This document shows, in pieces, positions 4,298 to 63,688 of a DNA stretch of 64,000 nt. The DNA is from Anolis carolinensis (Eukaryota). The notes under the pieces were generated by a model. The model was not told the origin of the DNA and did no database searches. It was given only the letters and a program-made list of their open reading frames with translations. A program made the position numbers and the translations under genes. Each line of letters opens with the position of its first letter. Position 1 is the stretch's first letter. The DNA lies in NCBI RefSeq assembly GCF_035594765.1, contig NC_085843.1:263601971-263665970 (forward strand), read 5' to 3'.

Positions 4298-5260
4298 ATG
4301 GCTGTAAAATACCTGCAAAGACTGTTCTGTGGTTTGTCTCTTGTCCTTGTTATTTTATTGACATGGTATATGGCATTTCCTTCCCACACTGTGATGAAAC
4401 ACAATGACTGGATGTATTTCTATGACAGTGAGCCTGTCTACAAGCAGAATTTTTCCTTCATATTACGTGAGCGAGTAACATGTGAAGCCCGCAGTCCGTT
4501 TCTGGTAATCTTGGTGATTTCAAGACCTACAGATGTGAAAGCGAGGCAAGCTATAAGGATAACATGGGGCTCCCAAAAATCCTGGTGGGGGAAAGAAGTT
4601 ATGGTGCTCTTTTTACTGGGCAAAGAGACAGAGAAGGAGGATATCGAAGCTTTGTCCACACGAGACGAAAGCATTCTTTACGGAGACATCATCCAGCAAG
4701 ATTTCCTTGACACCTATGACAACCTTACCTTGAAAACTATCATGATGTTCAGATGGGTCACTGAATTTTGTCCAAGTGCTCAGTATATGATGAAGACAGA
4801 TTCTGATGTTTTCGTCAACACAGGCAATTTAGTCAAGTTTCTTCTAAATTCAAATGCCTCAGAAAACTTCATGACTGGCTACCCTCTGGTGGGATCCTAT
4901 CCTCACCGAGGACTTTATTTGAAAGCTTATATTTCTTATTCTGACTATCCATTTAGTGTTTATCCCCCATATTGCAGTGGATTTGGTTATATACTTGACA
5001 CCAAACTAGTTCACAAGGTTTATGAAATAATGAGCCATATTAAACCTATTAGGTTCGAAGATGTCTATGTTGGAATTTGTTTAAATATACTCGGGGTGGG
5101 TATCTCTATTCCAAATGACTCCAAACTCTTCTTTTTGTCCACAATTGAGTTTGATATTTGTAAGTACAAGCACTTGGTCGCTGTACACGGGATTTCTCCA
5201 CAGGACATGGTTGCATTCTGGGAGGAAATAACGAAGAAAGCCACAGTTCCTTGCCAGTAA
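4298..5260 (+). CDS. B3GALNT1: UDP-GalNAc:beta-1,3-N-acetylgalactosaminyltransferase 1 (globoside synthase), GT31 family, single coding exon
   Basis: 320-aa intact ORF with an N-terminal TM segment and GT31 motifs RQAIRITWG, YGDIIQQDFLDTYDNLTLKT, MKTDSDVF (DxD), YPPYCSG and EDVYVGIC. The WMYFY..EP.Y stem matches B3GALNT1 as recalled, and tail-to-tail synteny with PPM1L is as in human. Confidence 0.95.
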   Translation: MAVKYLQRLFCGLSLVLVILLTWYMAFPSHTVMKHNDWMYFYDSEPVYKQNFSFILRERVTCEARSPFLVILVISRPTDVKARQAIRITWGSQKSWWGKEVMVLFLLGKETEKEDIEALSTRDESILYGDIIQQDFLDTYDNLTLKTIMMFRWVTEFCPSAQYMMKTDSDVFVNTGNLVKFLLNSNASENFMTGYPLVGSYPHRGLYLKAYISYSDYPFSVYPPYCSGFGYILDTKLVHKVYEIMSHIKPIRFEDVYVGICLNILGVGISIPNDSKLFFLSTIEFDICKYKHLVAVHGISPQDMVAFWEEITKKATVPCQ

Positions 5261-10134: not shown

Positions 10135-11262
10135 ATTTCAGTAAGGCCTTCGACAAAGTCCCCCACGATCTTTTGGCAAACAAACTAGTAAAATGTGGGC
10201 TAGGCAAAACTATGGTTAGGTGGATCTGTAATTGGCTAAGCGAACGAACCCAAAAGGTGCTCACCAATGCATCTTCTTCATCTTGGAAAGAAGTCACGAG
10301 TGGAGTGACGCAGGGTTCCGTCCTGGGCCCGGTTCTGTTCAACATCTTTAGACGAAGGGTTAGAAGGCACGATCATCAAGTTTGCAGATTACATCAAACT
10401 GGGAGGGATAGTCAACACTCCCAAAGACAGGAGCAGAATTCAAAATGATCTTGACAGACTAGAAAGATGGGCCAAAACTAACAAAATTAAGTTCAACAGG
10501 GACAAATAAGATACATCACTTAGGCAGAAAAAATGAAATGCAAAGATACAGAATGGGGGACACCTGGCTAGACAGCAGTACATGTGAAAAAGATCTTGGA
10601 GTCCTCGTGGACAACAAGTTAAACATGAGCCAACAATGTGATGCGGCTGCTTAAAAAGCCAACGGGATTCTGGCCTGCATAAATAGGAGTATAGCATCTA
10701 GATTCAGGGAAGTCATGTTACCCCTCTATTCTACCTTGGTCAGACCACACCTGGAATACCGTGTCCAATTCTGGACACCACAATTGAAAGGAGATGTTGA
10801 CAAGCTGGAAAACGTCCAGAGGAGGGGAACTAAAATGATCAAGGGTCTGGAGAACAAGCCCTATGAGGAGCGGCTTAAAGAGCTGGGTATGTTTAGCCTG
10901 CAGAAGAGAAGGCTGAGAGGAGACATGATAACCATGTACAAATATGTGAGGGGAAGTCATAGGGAGGAGGGAGGGAGCTTGTTTTCTGTTGCCCTGCAGA
11001 CTAGGACACGGAACAATGGCTTCAAACTACAGGAAAGGAGATTCCACCTGAACATCAGGAAGAACTTCCTCACTGTGAGAGCTGTTCGACAGTGGAACTC
11101 TCTGCCCCAGACTGTGGTGGAGGCTCCTTCTTTGGAGGCTTTTAAACAGAGGCTGGATGGCCATATGTCGGGGGTGCTTTGAATGCGATATCCTGCTTCT
11201 TGGCAGGGGGTTGGACTGGATGGCCCATGAGGTCTCTTCCAACTCTACTATTCTATGATTCT
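10135..11262 (+). mobile_element. CR1 LINE, 5'-truncated (RT C-terminal part and 3' UTR), frameshifted
   Basis: Peptides FSKAFDKVPH, SGVTQGSVLGPVLFNIF and [11 protein letters not shown]; ends in the ATTCTATGATTCT CR1 tail. Confidence 0.95.
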
Positions 11263-24917: not shown

Positions 24918-25264
24918 TTACTGGTCTTCTGATTTACTGCCACCCTTGAACTTCACCACCATGACTGTTATGTTGTCAGGGCATCCTCTGTAAAAAGACT
25001 GTAGGACTATACTTTTGGCTCCAAAGTGTGGTTCATCCAAGCGTTCCTTGATGAACCGTACAGCCTCCTCATTGCTAAAGGCATCCCATAGCCCATCGGA
25101 AGCTAAGATCATGAATTCTGGCTGGAGTTTGTCCAGGTCGAAGGTCAGGATGTCTGGGTCAGGAATGACGACGTTCAGGTTCTTCAGGGGATAATCTCCA
25201 AGAGAGCGGGACATGGCTAGGATCCCCTGAACACGCCAGGAGCCATTAAAGCTGATGAAGCCAC
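24918..25264 (-). CDS. PPM1L: Protein phosphatase 1L (PP2C-epsilon), final coding exon
   Basis: Encodes GGFISFNGSWRVQGILAMSRSLGD...MILASDGLWD...GCPDNITVMVV, ending in a stop. Acceptor TCTCTCCTCTCCAG at 25265-25266 (minus); the phase-1 junction joins the previous exon in frame (RA G|GT GGC). Confidence 0.97.
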
Positions 25265-28191
25265 CTGGAGAGGAGAGAAACAAACAAGCAAGCACGCCTT
25301 CTGTTAAAATTACTTCTGTATGACACTCGTTTTCAGAAGCTTCCAAGCATCTGTAAAACAATAACTGGAGAAGTATTATATTTTGCGTTCCTTTCTGAAG
25401 TCCTTTTTCAACCAGATAACACTAATCTTCACATTTTTGCATCTTATTTCCAGGAGGGAATAAACAAAACAAAACACATTCCCATAATGAATTTGTGTGC
25501 CTGTTGCTAAGACACAAGCAAGGAAAATGCACAGGGATGTTGATCACTACCTTCGTGTTTGGAGAGCTATGCTATTGTTAGCATACCACATTTGCACTAG
25601 TTTGATGAAACCTTTCAGCAAAGATCAGAGTTCTGAGGTAGCCTACTTTAAAGTCAGAATTAGACCTTATTCATGGTGTGAGGATGTGACCAAAAAGCAA
25701 ATTACCAAATAAAGGTCTCTCTCCCTCCAATATGTAGGGATGGACAACCTCTCATAATGCTATCCTATTTAAGTCTGTTCTCTGTTATTCAAATGAATTA
25801 CCACAATCCTGTTTGGGTCTATATAGTATGACTCCTGTATCCATGGGGGATACGTTTCCAAACTTCATGTGGATATGCAAAACCACAGATAAGAGCTAAC
25901 GCTATTAAAATGAAGGATTGCTGGCTCAAGAATACCATAGATGACTTCATCACACTCACTTAAATCAGCATCCTACTATGCTTTCACCCTGTCTTGGGGA
26001 TGGAGCCCCATGCCGACCATCACATAACGTTGTGTGACTTCCGGCAGAGGCCCTGCCCCCAACAGGCGTGGAAGCCATGTTGGACACTTCCCCTACAACA
26101 CATGCCAGACATGATCCATGTTGTGCACAAATCTTCTGTAGAATGGTGACATTTCCCATGTGTGATGGGGAGAGCATCGCCAAGAGGGAGTTGTACATGG
26201 GTGACAGATTTGCCCTGCTGCTCCTCTCTTTTCACTGCGAAGCCAGGCGAAGTGGGACGCTTTGCCTGCCCTTTGTGATGAGGCCCAGAGTCATGCTGGA
26301 GGACCTAAAACTGCAGAAAGAGGGAATATGTTGTCAAACATTGATAAAGAAAACCACTGATATTTGTTCCATGGATATGAAGGTCATACCATAATAGGTC
26401 CACATGTGAACCAATGTTAGGCTAGCTTACTGAACTGCCTCTGAAACCTCTCCACTGCATGGCCATTCTGTGCTTCACGTAGAGCAAGTGGGATAGCAGA
26501 AACATCTGTCAAAATCACTAGAACCAGATGCAAAATTATTACAAGCAGTGGTAAGTCTTCTGGAGAACTATGATGATTCTCAGAGCTGATATCATCATTT
26601 TGCATCTAGCTACAAAGATGTAGCCATATGCTTATTCTGTCCTGTTTCCCACAAAATACAGAATGGCTATGCTGGGGCTTCAGAGGTTGGTCAGTAAATG
26701 TAGGTGGGAGATTTGAGCAGAGACAGGGAATACCAACCCTGCAGCATACAACAAAGGATAGATGTATATGTAATCCCAGCCAGAGGCTGATATTGCCAGA
26801 TAACACACATACAGACCCAATGGCATGTGTATAGATTCCTATATGTTACTGAAGGGAAGTGAGGGAGGATAACTTGGCATGGGAGAAACCAAGGCATTAC
26901 GTTCTACCCCAAACTCACAATCCTATACACGTTTCCTCTGCAGTTAAATGTGCATAGCTTTAGACTGTAAAAAGAAGAAGATGCATTCAAAAACATTTTG
27001 AATCGCATGAGGGATTAAGAGAAAATGGATTGTGAAGATGATCCCCCTTGGAGTTATTTCCGTCCCAGATCTGCTGGTAAATCCATTTTACATTATGCAT
27101 CCTGAAATCCTATGGGTACACGAAACACAGGAAACATCTAAACACTGCTATAAGGAATTGGGTTGTGTTCGTATCCATGCCAATACCATTAAAAGGGCTG
27201 ACAGACAGATTCCTGGAGGCAAGTACCCACTTGTATTTTTTTTCTTCAGCTCTCCAATTGGATATGACAAATTGCTAAAAGCACAAGAAAACTCAGCCTT
27301 CATTGCTGCAATTTGCCGTGCAGGGAATGTTCTTGTCTGTGCTCAGGCAATTTGCCCTCGAACTCTCATCAAGCCCTCTTTCTCCCTTTGGGGCAATTCA
27401 GGAAGAGGTTCACGCTCATTTACAAAGATTTATGAAGGAGACGGGACATCAGGCACACTAAAGACCCAAGCCTCATTCCAGGGCAGGAAGAAAAGAAATA
27501 TACACGCAAACAAAAGTTTATCCTTCCTCCCATGAAAGAGGTCTCAGTTGAGCTGTAACAGTAATGATCCAGAAAAGTCTTGTGAAAATAATCATCCCAA
27601 GCTTTTGAGTTTAGAGAAGAAAATAGAAGAAACAGGGAAAAGTTCTGGGTCCAAATAACAACACGGCCATTAAAGCAAAGGACACGGCACCGCAGATGGC
27701 AGTAGTGGTGTGTGGGGCAGAGAATATAGGAAAAGTTATTTTTTTAAAAAAACCTACAAACTGACATCTCCCCAAGCTCCATTCAGCAGGATTTCATCAT
27801 TGTTTAAAGCAGTAGCCTAGGAACAAGAAGCAGAATCTATCCCCAGTGCCTCTCTTATGATGGCCTTTAGCCCTGGTACCCACAACCACATCAGCATCCC
27901 AACCTCTGCCTGTCTCTTCCCTGCATGGAAGGAGAGGAGGAAAAGAGGAACATTAAAACAGCACCTACAAGCCAAGAAATGGAGGTTGGGGCAATAAGAA
28001 ATTTAGTTGTCATTCTGAACACCCGTTAGAATGAAAGGTGTGATAGGGAAAATGGCCTGTGCTGTGCTGTGCAGTGGCTTGAGCATTGGACTACGACTCT
28101 GGAGAGTGCAGTTAGCTTCCAATTCAGCCATGGAAATCCAGAGGGAGGCTCTCTCACTCTCAGAGGAAGGCAAAAGCAAAGTCCCTCTAAC

Positions 28192-30073: not shown

Positions 30074-31860
30074 GGCAACATGGCGTAGAGCAAGGGTCCT
30101 CAAACTTTTTAAGCAGAGGGCCGGTCCATGGTCCCTTAGAGTGTTGGGGGGCCAGACTATAGTTTGAAAAAAATACCAACAAATTCCTATGCACACTGTG
30201 CATGTCTTATTTGTAGTGCAAAACAAATATGAAAGAATACAATATTTAAAAATAAGAACAATTTTAACAAACATAAACCTACCAGGATTTCAATGGGAAG
30301 CATAAGCCTGCTTCTTGCTGATGAGATGGTCAAGTTACTTAGGATTGTTGTTGTTGTTGTTCTGTGCCTTCAAGTCATTTCAGACTTAGGGCAAGCCTAA
30401 GTCTAAAACTGAGGGCGGGGGCCAGATAAATGACCTTGGAGGGCCGCATTCGGCCCGTGGGCCTTAGTTTGGGGACCCCTGGCGTAGAGGATCTTTCACT
30501 TTTGATATTTTTTAAACATTTCATTGTGTAGTCCATGCTCTCTCTGCATTTGGAGAGACATCCCAATGAGCCATCTTTCGAGGGAGACATGGCATGGTCA
30601 AGTCAAACAATTGAGCTCGTAGAGACTGCGCTACCCACCCAATGCTATGGTGCAGAGACATGGACAACGACAAAGGCTCTCTCGGAACAACTACGGGTTG
30701 CACATGTCTCCCTTGAAAGATGGCTCATTGGGATGTCTCTCCAAACGCAGAGAGAACACAGACTGCACAACGGGGATGTTAAAAAAATATCAAAAGTGAA
30801 AGATCCTCTACGCCATGTTGCCTCACTTGTCTTCACTTTTGTCGACTACAAGAAGGCATTTGATAGCACGGAACTATTAAAGCCATTGCAGACTCTTGTA
30901 GTTGTCAAAAGTGAGAACAAGTGGCATCTGGTATTCATGGGTGATTTCTAATATTCGATTAACAGTCAGGATGTGATCAATGGTGGAGAATAAGTGATGG
31001 AATCCAGCTTGTTCAACCGTCTGTGCCTCCTCTAATATTCTCCTGATGTGGGCTAGAATACACCTGGTGAAGACTTTGTAGTTAACCGGTAGGAGAGTAA
31101 TTGGGCGGTAGTTCCTCATATCTTCTATGCCTCCTTTCTTGAATAACAAGATCATTTTTGAGGTGTTCCAGGTCTTCAGTACACAGCTGTCCGCTAGATA
31201 ATGAAAGAAGTGGCAGGTGAGTTCTTTGTAAAGAGGAGGTCCGCATGTTTTTAAAAGTTCTCCGATGATGCTGTCTTGATGTGGAGCCTTTTCAGCTGGC
31301 ATGCTTTTTGATGGTCGAACGAACTTCAGATGAGAGAAAGAAAGGGTGGTGTTGGATGGAGAAGGAAGGCCAAGCCCTTGTGGTAGAGCACTGTGAAATA
31401 GGTCAGTGTAAAGAAATCGCATCTCTGGCTCAATTGAGAAATTTGGAAGTGACTTGGTTGCCTTTTCTGGTCTTTAAACACGGGATTATCAATCTATACT
31501 CTGCCATTTCACGGTAAGTTTTTTTCAGACTCCTTTTGGCTTCAGCTGTGGACAGCAATTGTGACTTCTCATAAGCCTTGTGATCATGAGCTATGATGAG
31601 CTCTGCATGTTTTGGATAGTTTGTGAAATTTAGGAGAGGATCAATTAGTGTTTCTTTTCTCTAACAGACATCTCGTTTCTTCTGACAACCTTCTTGTGTC
31701 ATGGCAGGAGGCATGAGTTGTGGCTGTTTGGTTGATTCCAGCAAGCGTTGTTCGTAGTCCTTGTCAATGTCAGGCAAAAAGAAATAAACTGTTGAGGCTG
31801 CTACTGTTGAGGCTGCATCAGCTTCTAGTCGTTGTGGGGGTTTTCTGTTCAACAGTTGGT
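30074..31860. mobile_element. Rearranged RTE-clade (RTE-1-type) LINE relic with segments in both orientations
   Basis: Minus strand: KAP.QDSI..ELLK, FKKG..EDMRNYRPITLLPVNYKVFT, EQAGF, STIDHI, EYQMPLVLTF. Plus strand: FVDYKKAFDS and CYGAETW. Confidence 0.9.
30091..30481. mobile_element. hAT non-autonomous element nested in the RTE relic
   Basis: TIRs CAAGGGTCCTCAAACT / AGTTTGGGGACCCCTG with a perfect 8-bp TSD, GCGTAGAG (30083-30090 and 30482-30489). Confidence 0.92.
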
Positions 31861-36244: not shown

Positions 36245-37016
36245 CTCTATTTCCTTTAGCACAGGAGTGTAAAACACATTATCATGAAGGGCCACATGAG
36301 CTTTATGGTTGCCTTCAAAGGGCCATTGATCTATGGATACAGGATGCAAGATACAGCAATGACAGTTACTGTGGAGCGCTGTGATTTTGCAGTGTGAAGG
36401 TGCCTCAGGACCCGAAGCAGGCCATAAGATTGCAAGCCACTTTCCAGTTTTGCCAAATTCAAGCTTGCCAAGTATTTTAATTATTTAAAATGCATAAAAA
36501 TTTGCAATGTACCAGAAAACAGATTGTCATTTTTTTCCTGAAATTAATTATAAATGAATTTTTCATTAAATATTATTAAACTCATTAAAAATTTTCCCCA
36601 GTCATCACTAACAAATAAAATCCCACATGATACATGATTAATTAATGTTAAATTTATATTTATATATAACTGAACTGCAAATGTACTTAAATTTACTTTA
36701 ATTAATGTATTAACTATTCATGTTGAACTAAAGTGACTGTGATACTGATTATCCCACTGAATATACAAGTTGAGTATCCCTTATCTGGAATTCTGAAATC
36801 CGAAATACTCCAAAACCCAAAACTGTCTACATAGGTTGCTGAGAAAGGGACACCTTTGCTTTCTGATGGTTCGATGTACACAAACTTTGTTTCATGCATA
36901 CCATTATTAAAGATATTGTGTATAAAGTTACCTTCAGGCTATGTGTATATGATACGTATGTTTCATAAATGATTTTTGTGTTTAGATTTGGATCCCATGT
37001 CCAGAAAACATCTCTA

Positions 37017-38107
37017 TGTCAAAGACAGAACGCCACCAAATAGAGTAAAACTCAGTTTATTGAGGTTACAAAACTGAAAATGCCCGTAGGAAACAAAGGA
37101 TTAGGCAAACACTTGACTTCAGTGTGAAAAGTAACAAAAACAGCTCCATTTGAACTAAAACGGTTCAAAAGGATAAACCGGATTAAACAGGAGTTTAATC
37201 CGGATTAAATCAAAAGTGCTTACTTCAGCCTGCAAATTTAGCAAACAAAAGAGGATTAACAAAGGTCAGAATGAACACAATAAACTAGCAGCAGATTCCT
37301 CTCTGCTACTCAAAAGCTACAGATGAGTAAATCAGGCTGTTTACTCCTCCGTGCAACGAGCGAAATCCGGGTCCAGGCACATCAATCAGGGTAACGGCAG
37401 TCAGCAGGGTCTCAATCCGGTCCAAGGTCGAAAGCCAAGTGCAGACGTCTAGAATTCCACAAGTCCCACCGATAGCCACAGAAGGGATAATCCGGGGTCG
37501 AAGTCAGTCAGTCCAGCGTCAATCCAGAGTAGGTAATTAATGTCCGTCAAAAAGACGACGGAGGTCCAAGGTATCCAGCAACGAATCACACCCGTCTTCA
37601 GGAAGTTCCCCAACAAGAGCCCAAGCGTTCGTCCAGATTACCTTGCCCAACGCAATTAGACATTGATCCTAAACCCCATTTTATCCCAGTTCAAACTCAT
37701 CATCACTGTCAGCTGCCATCCTAATCCCAGGTGCCTCATCATCATCATCCTCATCAGAGCTAAAACACCTTTGACTACGCCCCACAGCATCCCCAGCTGT
37801 GGATCGCGCTCCATCCCTCCAGCCCGTCCATGGGTCTGATCCTGCAACCCGCCAATCGCCTCCCATGCTTTCATTGCCGGTGACACCCAAATCCTCCCTC
37901 ACACGAGTCCACTCCATGTCATCCTCCTCCGAGCTGACCATTTCTTCCTCCATTCCCTCGGTAAAACCCTCAAAAGAGTCCTCATCTGTTGGTTCTGCAA
38001 ATAAGTCCCGGAGCCGTTTCCTTTCACGCTCCTCAAAAGAGTCTGACTCTCGAGGAGTCTTACGACCCCGTCTCCTAGTATCGGAGCCAGAAGGCTCAAC
38101 CATAACA
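37017..38107 (-). mobile_element. Solo LTR (1091 bp), probably Gypsy-type
   Basis: TGT...ACA termini and a perfect 5-bp TSD, CTCTA (37012-37016 and 38108-38112). Minus-strand AATAAA at 37056-37061, ~40 nt from the 3' end; TATA-like GATAAAA near 37680; CpG-rich relative to the flanks. Confidence 0.88.
37681..38103 (-). CDS. LTR(U3)-encoded 140-aa acidic ORF with basic NLS-like patches and an FxGF motif (putative)
   Basis: Intact ORF whose ATG is at nt 5 of the LTR; 41/140 residues are D/E; contains RRRGRK, RERKRLR and LRDLFAEPTDEDSFEGF. Expression is unproven. Confidence 0.5.
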   Translation of the reverse strand: MVEPSGSDTRRRGRKTPRESDSFEERERKRLRDLFAEPTDEDSFEGFTEGMEEEMVSSEEDDMEWTRVREDLGVTGNESMGGDWRVAGSDPWTGWRDGARSTAGDAVGRSQRCFSSDEDDDDEAPGIRMAADSDDEFELG

Positions 38108-39609
38108 CTCTATATATCTGTAGATAGATAGATGATAGATATATAGATGCAAATGTTACAAAATTAGAAAGAAAATCCAAAATATGGAACACTTCTGGCC
38201 CAAGCCAATTTTGGACAAGGAATAATCAACTTGTACTGTATTTAGTAGTGGTTCGGTGCATTTAGCAATGGTTTACTGATGGAAATCAGCAGCAAACCAT
38301 AATGTTGATGTATTTACAATAACAAATTCCAGTTGGCAGTTTGAGAGGGTGCAAAAAGAGTCTTGGGCAACTGTATGTGAACCTGCTCTTTGCCTCTCTC
38401 CTGTACTGGCCTTTAGGGATCTCCATGGTACTGGCTTCGCTAATGGTAGTGAAAGTGTTGGTGATGGGAGGACAGCCATGATGGAGCTGGACATTCAACA
38501 TTCCCCTCTCCTTCCACTGACCATAATGAGTAGAAATTAATTGCTTGAGATTTGGGACTGGCTTATATTCAGGGTCTGTTTGGTCATGTATTGGGAGAAA
38601 GTCCTGCAGATTCACAACCTTCCTGGCACACAGTCGAAACAACTTGTTTGGATTGTAGATCTGGGAGGCCAGAAACAGCATCCTTCTACAGCTACACTAT
38701 TGGAAGACAACGATATGCTGTTCTATCAGTTGGCTCTTTGCTGGCCGAACAAGCTGGCACCTGAATCTTATTGTGCTTAAGCCACATTCTTGGAAATTGC
38801 AGGTTGGTTCCTTAATTTAACTTATATAGATTGTTTTATTGTCTTGGATTTACCTTTTCAAGTAGGTGCAGCTATTAATATCAAGAGGCTATATATTAAT
38901 ATATTGCAAGATGGCTGACACCATTGAAATATTTAGTTGGCAGATTGCAAGTTAGGGGCAGCAGAATTTGGGTAAGATTTTTTAAACTGCAACTTCCAGA
39001 ATCCCCAGCTAGCATAATTAGTAACATTTCCAAAGGTCTAGGTTATCTCTGTGGTGATTCTGTGGAAGTGAGATTATTATTTTGGGTAGACAATCCCCTT
39101 GAAGAAATTGGCTCCCTTTGGCAAGCTAATATAGAAACCTGGCCAGAATAAAATTAACAGCCAAGAAGACTAAATGGAAGCATCCACAGTTCATCTGATA
39201 GAAAAGTACAATCAAAATTAATTTTGGAAAGATGAACGCATTTTTCCCCAAAATTAATTCTAATTGTACTTTTCATATTGCGCTTTGGGCAGTCTAGGAT
39301 TTTCTAGGCTGTTCCCACTCATCTTTAAGACATTGAAAAACTATCAGTAATCTTCTGTTTCTCATATTCCATCACTCCCTATGGCTCTCCTTCCCTCTCC
39401 ATGAACCCTCCTACACTATTGAATCAGTACCGTTTGACACCACTTTAGCTGCTATGGCTGAATGCTATGGAGTCAAGGGAGTTGTTGTTTTACAAGGTCT
39501 TTGCCAAAGAGTATTGGTGCCTCACCAAACTACACATCCCAGGAGTCCATAGAATTGAGCCATGGCAGTTAAAGTCGGGTCAAACTATATTAAATTTTAC
39601 GGTATAGAC

Positions 39610-40843: not shown

Positions 40844-41058
40844 TCCCTATGATTCCACAGGGTATTGCCAGGACAGCTAAAGTGGCATCAAAGAGCTAAA
40901 ATGTGTCAGTATGAAAGTGGTCCGAGATTCTCAAAGATCTGAAGTCGTCTTTGCCTAAAGAGAAATTGCTTTGTCACAAATAAAAAAATACCAAAGATAT
41001 CGCTACCGTTTTTTGTCAGACCACCTACAGAAGAGCGCATCCAACTTTATAAGCTTAC

Positions 41059-41220
41059 CGGCTCTTTTAATCCGCTTCCTCTCCTTCAGCTGATAGGGCT
41101 TGTGATCGTGTGACAAAGGGATTGCGTTCCCATCCTTATCGCACAAGACGCCCCTCGAATCCCCAACGTTGGCCACCGTGAGCTCCTTATCTGACAGCAA
41201 GGCAATCAGACATGTCGTAC
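41059..41220 (-). CDS. PPM1L: PPM1L penultimate coding exon (162 bp)
   Basis: Encodes GTTCLIALLSDKELTVANVGDSRGVLCDKDGNAIPLSHDHKPYQLKERKRIKRAG, including the PP2C motifs ANVGDSR and DHKP. Acceptor CCCCTTCAG, donor G|GTAAGC; phase 1 on both sides. Confidence 0.97.
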
Positions 41221-42233
41221 CTGAAGGGGAACAGAAGTGGACGGGGAGGAGGGGAAAAGAAGAGACCATCAAGACAATGGAGCGGAAGTCACTGCCTCTC
41301 GCCGCATCCTCCTCTCCCCACCTGCGTTATCAGCATTCAGCAGCCACTGGGAGCGTCGATATCTGACCGAAACATCTAGTACGCCGATGACAGCCTATTT
41401 AATGGTGCTGATCAAAACTGACAGTCAATTTCTTCCCTTTGCAATAGTTTTTTAAAAGTAGATTTGATTTTTGGGTTGGCATTACAAGGGTCAGTCCTTC
41501 AGCACAACACTTCTCACCTGGCTTGTCATTGAGGTATAATTTGAAATGGCTGCAATGCAGAAAGTCTGTCAGGAGCAAGATTCAGAACAGAGCCCTACAT
41601 TAAGATAACTCTGATGGGAGACGGATGCTCTTATGTATAGAATATATACATTATTTGATCTTTCCTCCTCTCTCTCTCGCTCTGTCTCGCACACAAATAC
41701 TACACCTTGCAGTATGTTGTAAATGACAGAAGGAATGGGCTCTAAATTACAGAGAGCAGAAAGGGAAATATATTCCCAGTGATAATCTGACAGCTGTCTT
41801 CTCCCACTGGGCAAGGAGAGTAATAAGACAGAAAATTCCTATTGGCATATCAGTCTCCACAGAGCCTTCCCTGACTGACAGCAACTTGCATTTACAAAAT
41901 GTAGGAACAAACTATATCTGAGTTGGAGGTGACCTACTTGACCCCTGTCAAAGGGAGTACCATCAGGAAAGGCAGCTTCCATGCATCTGACCATGTTAAG
42001 ACTCATTATTATCCAGGAAAGGTAGACGGCATATCCTCTAAACACAAGAAACTGCCTTACTACATATTGATTTACTAACTATATTTATAGCTCACCTCTC
42101 CTTCGATTTAATCAGGATGGTATCCATGGTTCTCTTCCTTCCTACTTCAACCTTCCAACAGTCCTGAGAGGTAGCTTGGACTAAGTCTGGCTCAACACTA
42201 AAGAATTAATGCCATTTGACACCACTTTAACCA

Positions 42234-59519: not shown

Positions 59520-59899
59520 CCCTTCACAGCGGGGAGGAGGCGTCTCTTCTCTCCTCCTTTCCAAAGCCAGCCTCGGTGCTCCTTCGGTGGCAGGCCTCGA
59601 GCCGCAGAGCACGAGGTGCTTGAAAATTTGGCGAAGTCGCCATTTTGGCAGTTTACGTCACTCGGGCAAGGGAGGTATCAAGTGGCAAGTTGCTGTCAGT
59701 TGACATTTTGCAGCTTGCCCACCAAAGTCTGGCGCCAAAGGTCACAATCTTTGTAAAGTATAGTTACTTAGTGATATATATTGCTATGGTTAAGTGCTGT
59801 GGATTGTATTATATATTGAATTTGCTTTTATTGTAAATTTACTTGCAGGTATATTGCATTTGCCTTTGTTGTAAATTTACTTGCTATTAAGAATACATA

Positions 59900-62800
59900 A
59901 TGTCTATGCAATTTCAAGATGATACAGATGGCGTACCTCCTTCTGAGGCTGAAAGTAGGAATGAAAGGCCCCAAAGGATAAAGCACCCTTCAGCCAAAAT
60001 GCTAGCCCATCTAATAGATGAAAAGGAGCTCCTCCATGTGAGGTTAGGTTCGGCATGGGAGCGAATTGTAACATTGATGGACAGAATTGAGAGCTTGGGT
60101 ATTACAAGGGTGCCATCCATATTACAGACAGACCTTGAAGAGACCTTCGGTCTCTGGAGGGGTTTAGTGTCTAAGATAGTCCAGGTCCTCGAGCGCATTA
60201 ACGCCAAGGATTCAGAGTTAGAAATAGTGAGTGTTTTAGCTGACACTAATGAGAAAGAAAATAGGGTGAGGGCAATCCTAGCTTCCTTATGCAGCCATGA
60301 GACCAATCTTTTAAAATCACCTGCTGTGGCACTTAGTCTTAAGTCCAACCGGTCTAGCCAGGTATCTAAACTAAGGGAGCGTGCATCGTCTAAACACAGC
60401 CACTCTAGCAAGTCTTCTGCTGCTGGGAGTGCCATCTCTTCCCTAGCTGCCTTGCACATTAAGGAGGCTGCACGTCTGGAGCTACAGAGCAAGGTTGCGG
60501 AGGCGGAAGCTGATGCAAAAGCAGCTGACCACACTTTCCACCTTAAAGAGGAAGAGCAACGACTGCAAATAGAACAGGCCCGTAGACAAAGCGAAATGCA
60601 AATAGAACAGGCTCGTATAGAGATGCTTAGAATAAAAATGGATGCCGCAGCCAAAAGGGTAAGGGCTGAGACTTTGGCCAAGGCCCTAATTGAGCCACTC
60701 ACAGAAGAAAATGTAAGCCAGTTACCAATACAGGACCCTTCTGCCAAAGTGTTTGCGCACCTTGGCAGCATGTACAGCCAGTTTTCGGATGAGGAACAGG
60801 GAGACTTCTCTCCTTACCCAGAGCAGGGCCCCAAAGTCACTTTTGAGTTTCCTGCAGAGCAGAGCGTCATAGCGGGGAGCTCACCCTTGCTCGAGCTACC
60901 TGTGCCTCCTGCTAAAACCCTAGGTCAGTCAATCAGGGCCTCAAGGCCGAGCGCTAGTTGGCCCCTACAGACAGCTGCACAGGGAACCATCGATTCGTCA
61001 GTGGTCGATGTCATCCCTCCAAGAGGCCAAAGGTTGACGCAAGGTGCACGGTGGGAGTCCACTCCACAACAGCAAACTCCTCAATTGTTCCCTTCGACGC
61101 CAGAGTCCCAGCTTGTCTCCATCATCAGAAGCCCCAGAAGAGATCTTAAGGACAAGGGTGTCGAAAAGTTTTCGGACAAGCCTGAGGAATTTCTTCTCTG
61201 GAAGGCCACCTTCCAGAGAGCAATCAGAGACTTAAAGTTATTGCCTGAGGAAGAACTGACTCTTCTGGCTGCATGGTTGGGCCCAGCCTCATCCTCACAA
61301 GTTAAGAAGATCTACGCAGCCCACGTAGCCGATCCCGACAAAGCCCTGGAAAAGGCCTGGGCCAGGTTGCAGCAGAGGTATGGGGCCAGCACAGAGATTG
61401 AAGCATCTCTTATGGACAAGCTCCAAAGGTTCCCAGCTTTAAAACTCAAAGACTTCAAACTCTTGTGGGACCTCAGCGATCTCCTTGCGGAATTAGAGTC
61501 GGCCAAGGAGAATCCAGAACTGCCCGGTTTGAAGTGCCTCGATCAGCACCTGTCCCAGAGGCAGATCTTGACCAAGCTGCCCTTCACTTTGCAAGAACGC
61601 TGGGGACAGGAGGTCTTCAACTACAAGGAGGCCCACTCCCAGGCATACCCTCCATTTTCTCATTTGGTCCAGTTCATCACCAGGGCAGCCAGAGAAAGGA
61701 ATGATCCACAGACGGGCCTCCCCACCTTATACCAAGGGACCCAGCCAGAGAAGGCACCTGAAGTGGACAAGAAACCACCTAGAGAGGCCAATAGACCTGT
61801 CAGCGTAAAGGCAGTCGAAACTCAACTCAAGACTGACGAACCCAGGTCGGAGGTAAAAGAGTTGCTTTGCCCTATTCACCAAAAGCCTCACAGCTTGGCC
61901 AACTGCAGGGAGTTTAGTAGAAAGACATACAAAGAAAGGCAACAGCTAGTTCAAAAGCAGGGAATCTGCTTTAGATGCTGTGGAGCAACTCCACACTTTG
62001 CATCCAACTGCAAAGAAAACATCAAGTGTGAGAAATGCAACAGCCTCAAGCATTGCACCGCAATGCACAACTCCAATATCATCTCCCACCCCAAAGAGAA
62101 CGCTTCACCAAAAGAAAAGTCAGCAGTCGAAGACACCGACAAGCCAGCCGCACCAGAGATGCAGGTGGAAGTTTCAGCAGTCGCCTGTACAGAGCTGTGT
62201 TCTGACTCGCACCAGTACAGAGTTTGTCATCCTATCTGCCTAGCGGATGTATATCCAGCCAAGAGCCCTTGGCTTAGAAAGAGACTCTATGTGGCCCTGG
62301 ATTCACAGAGCGACGCCTCCCTGGCTACTCCAGAGTTCTTCCGCATGTTTGACCTTAAAACCAAGATGGTCGACTACACTATGACTACGTGTGCAGGAAA
62401 AAAGAAGTTGCAGGGTCGCATAGCATCTGGCTTCGTTGTCTCCTCTTGCGACCAGAAGAGACAGTTCAAGTTGCCAGACCTGATTGAGTGTTCCTCCATC
62501 CCTCGGAACAAAAAACAAATTGTAACTAGAGAAGTTGTGGAGGCTCATCCACATTTGCGACGGTTAAAGAATGCCATACCAGCCTTTCAGCCAGATGTGG
62601 ACATTGCCCTTCTGCTTGGTGCGGACTGTCCGAACTTGTTCTATGTGAACGACCAAGTTAAGGGACCTCCAGGGGCGCCCATTGCTCAGCTGCTACCACT
62701 AGGCTGGACAGTTACAGGCCCAGTGTGCATAAACAAGATGCACCCACCATCGTCGTTGGACTCCAATCAAGCACAGGTGCTTAAAGGTGGACGTCCTACA

Positions 62801-63688
62801 CTTGTGCGCAGTTGCCTAAGTCACATCTCAGTCTACTGCCAAGCAATAACTCCAGAGTATTCCTCCATCTTCAAAGTCTCTGAGAGAGACGAAGCCACAG
62901 CGCTCTTGAAAGATGAGCAAAGGTTCTTGGACAGTATGAATGCTCAAGTCTCACGAAGTACAGAGGGAAATTGGGTAGCTCCTTTGCCCTTTAAGTCAGA
63001 TAAGCCCACTTCGCCAAACAATAGACACATGGCAGGGAAAAGACTCTGGTCCCTAAAGAAAAGAATCCATCATCAGGGTAGAACTCTAACTGAGGCAGCC
63101 CTTAGAAACGAAGGTCTGTGGGTAGTTAATGCCAAAAGGTTGGTCAACAGTTGTATTTTCAAATGTGTTAAATGCAGGTGCCTTAGGCGAAACTGTCAAA
63201 ATCGGTTAATAGCAGAACTACCTCAGGATAGGACTTTGACAGACCCACCCTTTTCCCACGTGGGAATTAATGTGTTTGGTCCTTGGGAAATTGTTACCAG
63301 AAAAACCAGGGGTGGTGTTGTAAATAATAAAAGATGGGCGGTTTTGTTTACTTGTTTGTCAAAACGAACTGTCTATATTGAGGATGTAGAGGGAATGGAC
63401 ACTTCATCATTTTTAAATGCATTGAAAAGGTTCATAGCCCTCAGAGGGCCAATTAAGTCAATTCGATCGGACTGTGGCACCAATTTTGCATGTGCAGACC
63501 TTAGCCAACCACTTCTGGAAGAGGTGGAAGGCCGAATACTTAAGCCAGCTTCCAACCAGAAGACTCTGGCAAACCCCAGAGGACAATTTCAAGGTGGGAA
63601 ACCTTGTGTTGCTAAAGGACAAAGACTTGCCCCGCTATGCCTGGCCTATGGGCATTACACTAAAGACCTTTTCTTGCCCGGACGGTAA
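59900..63688 (+). CDS. BEL/Pao Gag-protease fused in frame to a partial integrase (RT/RNase H absent)
   Basis: 1262-aa ORF with a coiled coil, a capsid-like region, three Cys/His knuckles (CPIHQKPHSLANC, CFRCC...HFASNC, CEKCNSLKHCTAMH), the protease motif ALDSQS, then HHQG...CVKC, GINVFGP and IRSDCGTNF. Confidence 0.9.
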   Translation: MSMQFQDDTDGVPPSEAESRNERPQRIKHPSAKMLAHLIDEKELLHVRLGSAWERIVTLMDRIESLGITRVPSILQTDLEETFGLWRGLVSKIVQVLERINAKDSELEIVSVLADTNEKENRVRAILASLCSHETNLLKSPAVALSLKSNRSSQVSKLRERASSKHSHSSKSSAAGSAISSLAALHIKEAARLELQSKVAEAEADAKAADHTFHLKEEEQRLQIEQARRQSEMQIEQARIEMLRIKMDAAAKRVRAETLAKALIEPLTEENVSQLPIQDPSAKVFAHLGSMYSQFSDEEQGDFSPYPEQGPKVTFEFPAEQSVIAGSSPLLELPVPPAKTLGQSIRASRPSASWPLQTAAQGTIDSSVVDVIPPRGQRLTQGARWESTPQQQTPQLFPSTPESQLVSIIRSPRRDLKDKGVEKFSDKPEEFLLWKATFQRAIRDLKLLPEEELTLLAAWLGPASSSQVKKIYAAHVADPDKALEKAWARLQQRYGASTEIEASLMDKLQRFPALKLKDFKLLWDLSDLLAELESAKENPELPGLKCLDQHLSQRQILTKLPFTLQERWGQEVFNYKEAHSQAYPPFSHLVQFITRAARERNDPQTGLPTLYQGTQPEKAPEVDKKPPREANRPVSVKAVETQLKTDEPRSEVKELLCPIHQKPHSLANCREFSRKTYKERQQLVQKQGICFRCCGATPHFASNCKENIKCEKCNSLKHCTAMHNSNIISHPKENASPKEKSAVEDTDKPAAPEMQVEVSAVACTELCSDSHQYRVCHPICLADVYPAKSPWLRKRLYVALDSQSDASLATPEFFRMFDLKTKMVDYTMTTCAGKKKLQGRIASGFVVSSCDQKRQFKLPDLIECSSIPRNKKQIVTREVVEAHPHLRRLKNAIPAFQPDVDIALLLGADCPNLFYVNDQVKGPPGAPIAQLLPLGWTVTGPVCINKMHPPSSLDSNQAQVLKGGRPTLVRSCLSHISVYCQAITPEYSSIFKVSERDEATALLKDEQRFLDSMNAQVSRSTEGNWVAPLPFKSDKPTSPNNRHMAGKRLWSLKKRIHHQGRTLTEAALRNEGLWVVNAKRLVNSCIFKCVKCRCLRRNCQNRLIAELPQDRTLTDPPFSHVGINVFGPWEIVTRKTRGGVVNNKRWAVLFTCLSKRTVYIEDVEGMDTSSFLNALKRFIALRGPIKSIRSDCGTNFACADLSQPLLEEVEGRILKPASNQKTLANPRGQFQGGKPCVAKGQRLAPLCLAYGHYTKDLFLPGR

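Follow-up and report, generated by a model that had tools for sequence, protein, structure and literature searches.

The window, meaning the whole stretch of 64,000 nucleotides of Anolis carolinensis DNA analysed here, contains a solo long terminal repeat (LTR) in the last intron of a PP2C-family gene. An earlier note on this DNA had described a 1091-bp solo LTR with TGT..ACA ends and a 5-bp target-site duplication, lying in an intron in the host sense orientation, and both points were borne out: CTCTA is found on either side of the LTR, and the PP2C exons that flank it are both on the minus strand, as is the LTR. We take the PP2C gene to be PPM1L, from its synteny with a galactosyltransferase gene at 4298-5260; the latter, a single-exon gene on the plus strand (PF01762), lies tail-to-tail with the PP2C gene. 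Also present in the window are a BEL/Pao-type element at 59891-63688 (plus strand), with a 1265-aa open frame that matches DUF1759 and a partial integrase core, gives no RT match and has apparently kept its frame through an internal deletion, and LINE-type ORF fragments at 10655-11182 (plus strand) and 30877-31473 (minus strand), the second with an RT match. The features of the LTR and of the intron ends are as follows.

24969..25268, minus strand: host PP2C-family exon, downstream of the LTR
37012..37016: target-site duplication, left copy, CTCTA
37017..38107, minus strand: solo LTR of a chromodomain-less Ty3/gypsy (Tf1/sushi-type) family, TGT..ACA ends, 1091 bp
37056..37061, minus strand: AATAAA polyadenylation signal
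37643..37653, minus strand: 11-nt self-primer complementary to the element's PBS; putative RNA 5' end (U3/R border)
37679..37685, minus strand: TATA-like box GATAAAA; ATAAAA is also present in the youngest subfamily
37681..38103, minus strand: 140-codon U3 ORF (LTR nt 5-427), the integrase C-terminal tail in full elements
37888..37953, minus strand: second constrained block, residues 51-72, acidic and then W65
37963..38013, minus strand: TIM/IBM-like motif, residues 31-47, with the F35 helix, acidic linker and F44-E-G46-F47; LRDLFAEPTDEDSFEGF
38008..38028, minus strand: basic helical segment RERKRLR, which runs into the TIM-like motif
38059..38076, minus strand: basic patch RRRGRK, residues 10-15, variable
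38108..38112: target-site duplication, right copy, CTCTA
41048..41233, minus strand: host PP2C-family exon, upstream of the LTR

The minus-strand frame is open from 38109 to 37681, with an ATG at LTR nt 5 and a product of 140 aa, in which D and E make up a fraction of 0.293. The uninterrupted U3-filling ORF, its 29% D/E content and the motif at 37963-38013 were thus all as claimed. The overlap of the stop codon with the TATA-like GATAAAA, also claimed, exists in the window copy, but in the family it is a minority variant (11 of 101 distinct tails), and 89 of the 101 stop three codons earlier. A supposed weaker echo of the motif at the C-terminus, DSDDEFELG, did not hold up, as ...EFELG is an unconserved end variant found in only 5 of the 101 distinct tails.

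Directly after the 5' LTR lies an 11-nt PBS that is complementary to LTR nt 455-465, located 32 nt downstream of the TATA-like box. This complementarity was found in all four two-LTR elements checked, one of which represents the youngest subfamily, where compensatory change has affected both the PBS and the self-primer side. Self-priming is the arrangement of the Tf1/sushi group, according to the accessible part of PMC6317226. Because of this complementarity, the RNA start can be placed at about 37653 and the ORF wholly in U3; consequently, in a 5' or a solo LTR the element's own promoter cannot drive transcription of the ORF. Since it lies upstream of the RNA start and inside a host intron, the ORF in the solo LTR is most likely not expressed and present only as a consequence of LTR duplication. 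Within the family, the ORF is open (135-140 aa) in 37 of 40 LTR copies picked by DNA similarity. Separately, L062, L070 and L072 share a stop at tail codon 50, just past FxGF and with the motif intact, probably at a CpG hot spot.

The LTR belongs to a Ty3/gypsy family that is large and young, of Tf1/sushi chromovirus type and without a chromodomain. From 3060 first-look candidates, 40 LTR copies were scored at 92-100% identity, and 39 of these, at 92-99%, are copies other than that in the window. In each protein search of the genome, all 150 of the 150 scored matches were family copies, spread along all large contigs, and 76 identical matches mark a very young subfamily. Paired LTRs enclose gag, with a Ty3 capsid and a zinc knuckle, and a frameshifted pol in the order PR-RT-RH-IN, with no env. 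Head-to-tail family arrays with ~5.2-kb spacing, consistent with shared LTRs, were seen at G000:C1:26753570-26764417 and G000:C4:80505446-80521490.

Pfam recognised PR, RT, RH, IN and a Tf2-type SH3/GPY-F module in pol and gave no chromodomain match there. A forced alignment had hinted that the tail might be a decayed chromodomain; we rejected this, as its chromodomain HMM score was below 0, compared with 105.6 in a chromodomain-bearing family. PF00385 (chromodomain) is present in 105 of 116 listed non-family relatives, and the family shows the lineage features of Tf1/sushi, namely the self-priming PBS, the GPY/F module and an integrase that groups with those of chromodomain-bearing elements. 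We read the absence of the chromodomain as a secondary loss; Tf1/sushi membership is by lineage only. The database relatives that have the same tail carry the label Anolis carolinensis.

Does pol pass through the polypurine tract into the LTR frame? Past GPY/F, pol continues with a 31-residue linker and the polypurine tract, and the LTR ORF then follows in frame. The junction of the polypurine tract with TGTTAT was present at 50 of 50 loci, and at 44 of the 50 the frame stayed open all the way from the GPY/F module through the tail, in a sample chosen by protein similarity and hence biased to intact copies. Of the two alternatives entertained in the earlier note, a C-terminal extension of integrase or an accessory ORF of the sag/nef type, the in-frame read-through supports the former and not the latter. 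These results show that the U3 ORF is the last ~137-140 residues of integrase, a C-terminal tail and not a separate gene; reverse transcription thus places a copy of it in every LTR.

Selection on the tail was evaluated with 59 unique open-frame copies and 9 subfamily pairs by the Nei-Gojobori method. For the whole tail, dN/dS was 0.14-0.28 across the 9 pairs. Residues 21-50, which comprise the helix, the acidic linker and FxGF, gave 0.03-0.15 in the 6 of 9 pairs with unsaturated dS, near the value of the SH3 module (0.02-0.09), and residues 51-72 and 73-95 gave 0.00-0.32 and 0.06-1.31, respectively. Among shared variants, residues 21-50 had 29 synonymous and 12 non-synonymous changes (p=1e-11), and residues 51-72, with a shared-variant ratio of 0.11 (p=1e-5), were as constrained as the TIM-like block. 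Residues 21-72 were more constrained than the remaining tail (p=0.008), and the constraint on residues 1-20 was not significant (p=0.18).

Furthermore, variants present in at least 3 loci were more often synonymous than singletons (84/74 vs 30/66, p=0.0007), an excess that is as expected if active elements are under selection and their copies drift later. F35, F44, G46 and F47 are invariant in 59 of 59 unique copies. Synonymous codon changes occur at S43, F44, E45 and G46, which argues against constraint at the DNA level; F35 and F47 each use a single codon. Taken together, the data show protein-level purifying selection concentrated on the motif. The proposal thus survived tests named in the earlier note as able to refute it: the ORF is open in the family, its dN/dS is well below 1, all 59 copies keep FxGF, and a distant lizard family has similar motifs.

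How closely does the motif resemble known TIMs? L31, L/I34 and F35 are conserved in 59 of 59 copies and would form the helix, and the linker from F35 to F44 has 8 residues, is acidic and contains S/T. According to the available part of a review (PMC9987994), a TIM consists of a helix, an acidic linker of 8-16 residues, so that the Anolis linker is as short as this range allows, and an optional FxGF, the last being found in all known LEDGF/HRP2 TND partners; its viral mimicry section lists only lentiviral integrases, and the string 'transpos' is absent from the review text in that part. The FxGF-type consensus is given as D/ExExFxGF in the accessible part of PMC8022399. It is matched exactly in 19 of the 59 unique copies; in the others, among them the copy in the window and the majority of older ones, D stands in place of E. 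A hydrophobic helix with F, 6-10 aa and FxGF arose in 3 of 20000 peptide shuffles, a count for a pattern that was written after the motif had been seen, and FxGF alone arose in 482 of 20000. CK2-type S/T-acidic sites are present at the sequence level. PDB sequence searches with the tail retrieved none of the known TIMs, and the tail had no usable match in Pfam, PDB or the protein atlas.

We also modelled the complex of the lizard LEDGF IBD (P0132 401-490) with tail residues 21-55. The score was 0.40, compared with 0.01 for the best of 3 controls. In the calibration of the tool, which covered no peptides, 51 of the 78 solved pairs reached the mark, as did 2 of the 108 mismatched ones; passes at or below 0.60 included 5 of the 78 solved complexes vs all 4 passing mismatches, so that such a pass is more often wrong unless the complex was likely beforehand. 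The partner pLDDT was at least 60, the runs agreed in at least 87% of contacts, and the verdict of the tool was weak support; the score may reflect memory because similar LEDGF-peptide complexes have already been solved. Elsewhere in the genome, L154:1501-2049 (G000:C2:143718346) holds a processed pseudogene of PSIP1/LEDGF, an intronless copy whose IBD is interrupted by a stop.

In a profile search of 1.84 billion representatives, the full tail was found, among the matches listed, only in the family's own LTR translations (P0251, P0252). The GPY/F module could be located in 130 of the 148 other listed matches, and these contained one further motif-bearing element; a second pattern match, P0374, looked like a chimeric gene model. 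In a scan of 130 listed proteins, limited to rows in which the GPY/F module was located, P0023, with the UniRef label Podarcis muralis and an integrase identity of 46%, was the only non-family protein with an FxGF in acidic context after GPY/F. In P0023, the stretch from an intact chromodomain to the polypurine tract contains two helix-F/acidic/[FL]xGF units, and the frame also continues into an apparent LTR. P0291, which is identical to P0023 in 312 of 491 columns, likewise has two motifs after an intact chromodomain. One of the Podarcis-type motifs matches D/ExExFxGF exactly, and the units are kept in P0291 and in 10 of 12 cluster members that reach the region, while the surrounding sequence diverges. 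Local alignment of the tail with the Podarcis region was not significant (119 of 2000 shuffles).

A quick tree, in which the row famA_L089 is ignored because it contains a neighbouring element of the chromodomain family, united the tailed Anolis family with the P0023 family, another one from Podarcis, gecko elements and a chromodomain-bearing Anolis family in one clade (SH-aLRT 96), without resolving its internal order. In the chromodomain-bearing Anolis family (L159-L187), pol likewise enters the 3' LTR, for about 90 codons, and encodes a different tail there; read-through into the 3' LTR is therefore shared across the clade, unlike the motif. That different tail has an acidic xLGF segment and an RRSxRI end, which resembles nucleosome acidic-patch binding motifs, and P0015 (Podarcis) ends similarly.

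The genome also contains a young gypsy family (L094-L123, e.g. L111:1670-2070) with a fused 1596-aa gag-pol and a ~310-bp LTR, whose integrase ends just past GPY/F without a chromodomain or a tail. It has a strong polypyrimidine/CAG splice-acceptor-like site directly before the polypurine tract. According to the quick tree, this tail-less family is not a close sister of the tailed one. A search for tail remnants in its LTR was negative (100 and 81 of 1000 shuffles, with no blastn or tblastx support). Because other active gypsy families in this genome are without the motif, it is not needed for transposition generally.

Could the insertion sites carry a trace of targeting? As a proxy, we measured strand skew in flanks of 8 kb around 50 young copies of the family, 50 tail-less gypsy copies and 40 random sites, of which 135 of 140 were usable and 5 were dropped for having fewer than 2000 unmasked bases. 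In 7 control stretches from 3 genes, TA skew followed the sense strand in 6; GC skew failed this validation, since the sense strand had a negative value in 6 of 7. For three group pairs we compared seven measures, and the p values are uncorrected throughout. The magnitude of TA skew did not differ among the tailed family, the tail-less family and random sites (p 0.29-0.52), nor did GC content, CpG or repeat fraction differ between the flank groups. Signed TA skew was antisense at 31 of 48 sites in the tailed family (sign test p=0.06) vs 22 of 48 in the tail-less family (between families, p=0.048), and this trend was not replicated in 30 older solo LTRs with short flanks (18 of 30, p=0.34). A combined skew, including the GC component that had failed validation, was antisense at 35 of 48 sites (p=0.004), and its magnitude gave p=0.014 vs random sites and 0.10 vs the tail-less family; because of the GC component, these combined values are not reliable. 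The antisense TA trend is compatible with intronic enrichment but falls short of demonstrating it.

Several known systems share parts of this arrangement. In plant CRM (group A) chromoviruses, as described in the accessible parts of PMC3059260 and PMC6317226, pol likewise runs into the 3' LTR (CR motif/CHDCR), and the LTR encodes a putative targeting module that is not a chromodomain and whose gain is linked to chromodomain loss. However, those elements are of plants, tRNA-primed and centromere-directed, whereas the Anolis family is a self-priming vertebrate family with a TIM-like motif and a predicted preference for transcribed chromatin. General Pfam, PDB, profile and protein-atlas searches revealed no CR-motif similarity of the tail, and the family lies outside the CRM clade, as it groups with lizard elements and its copies run along all large contigs and are not centromeric. 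With Tf1/sushi elements (V-clade) it shares the CCHC Gag, the frameshifted pol (PR-RT-RH-IN-GPY/F), the 11-nt self-priming PBS and the 5-bp target-site duplication, but it has the acidic LTR-encoded tail instead of the chromodomain of most listed relatives.

On the host side, the TIMs of JPO2/CDCA7L, PogZ, MLL1 and IWS1 have the same Phe helix, 8-residue acidic S/T linker and FxGF; the Anolis motif differs in being on a mobile-element integrase, in its binding being a prediction, and in having D at the consensus E in most copies. Ty5 (Sir4), Ty1 (AC40) and MLV (BET) also bind a host chromatin factor through a short motif in a disordered integrase tail, although these are other element families with other host partners. 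The integrase motifs of Ty5 and MLV are host mimicry, and the targeting motifs of Ty5, Ty1 and MLV are not known to be LTR-encoded. A parallel in tether and outcome would be lentiviral integrase and LEDGF, with the same predicted gene-body integration (available part of PMC9987994). LEDGF is bound by HIV integrase through a structurally prearranged site and by the cellular partners through an unstructured motif (accessible part of PMC10854676), whereas the Anolis integrase would use a copy of the cellular linear motif. Full-text literature searches, which covered a minority of subscription papers, turned up neither a gypsy integrase bearing a LEDGF-type TIM nor an LTR-encoded tail of this kind.

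The integrase frame is thus continued by pol read-through of the polypurine tract into the 3' LTR, and the tail would remain on the mature enzyme. The helix-acidic-FxGF motif, as a host-motif mimic, probably binds the TFIIS-N-type domain of LEDGF/HRP2, and CK2 phosphorylation of the acidic linker, where candidate sites lie, may tune the affinity. Such binding would tether integration to transcribed chromatin. For the reading as a whole, an integrase tail whose motif binds LEDGF/HRP2 and tethers integration to transcribed chromatin, we lean slightly in favour; that the binding biases insertion to H3K36me2/3 gene bodies seems to us evenly balanced. More tentatively, and a little short of even, squamate gypsy elements may have copied the host LEDGF/HRP2-binding linear motif onto integrase in at least two layouts, LTR-encoded and replacing the chromodomain in Anolis and in tandem behind the chromodomain in Podarcis, giving HIV-like gene-body targeting by mimicry, with the 3' LTR as an exchangeable cassette for targeting peptides.

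The motif might instead bind a TND protein for a purpose other than site selection: it could hold the intasome in the nucleus or on chromatin in general, stimulate strand transfer, or recruit elongation or anti-silencing factors. We consider this unlikely but deserving of real weight: the same selection and complex-model evidence serves it, the insertion proxy shows no difference in TA-skew magnitude, and the chromodomain beside the motifs in the Podarcis family means that the motif need not replace a targeting module. Position speaks for targeting, since chromovirus targeting modules sit behind GPY/F (accessible part of PMC3059260), where the chromodomain is absent here, as does the weak antisense trend in the young copies. 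It is also conceivable, but distinctly improbable, that the conserved segment acts in cis or through another partner, for example an importin that recognises the basic patch, a contact with a histone chaperone or the nucleosome, or one with integrase or RT, its TIM likeness being incidental. Residues 51-72 are equally constrained and yet are not a TIM, acidic Phe-containing motifs are common, and the tail does not align significantly with the Podarcis region (the 119 of 2000 shuffles noted above). However, a separate family has the full three-part layout twice, elsewhere in the element, the three Phe and the Gly are invariant, and the complex controls scored at or below 0.01.

In MMTV sag and HIV nef, the coding sequence overlaps the U3 of the 3' LTR, and a separately expressed accessory protein of this kind, started at the ATG at LTR nt 5, could be imagined here, with a spliced RNA as its possible source and the ATG retained in the copies read; four sequencing runs, which consisted of contigs and so carry no information on splicing, showed no GT..AG joint. 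Yet sag and nef are separate genes, whereas the Anolis U3 ORF is in frame with pol, stop-free at 44 of 50 loci; its ATG lies inside the integrase attachment end, and the ORF is upstream of the putative RNA start, which together make this very improbable. Hardly credible at all is that the constraint acts on DNA, as U3 enhancer elements, or that the ORF is there by chance. U3 has a regulatory role, and F35 and F47 are single-codon, but synonymous sites in residues 21-50 change fastest in the tail, reaching saturation in 3 of 9 pairs, and yet the amino acids there are conserved.

If the favoured reading is right and the motif binds LEDGF/HRP2, the Anolis family would be a retrotransposon that uses the host TIM code to choose chromatin. 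This would represent a convergence with lentiviruses, which bind the same domain differently, and a route by which a chromovirus could pass from the direct reading of chromatin marks to a borrowed host reader. Since large young families that have the motif share the genome with others that do not, an insertion bias can be tested directly from annotation and population data. Furthermore, vertebrate gypsy LTRs that are annotated as non-coding can contain integrase sequence under selection.
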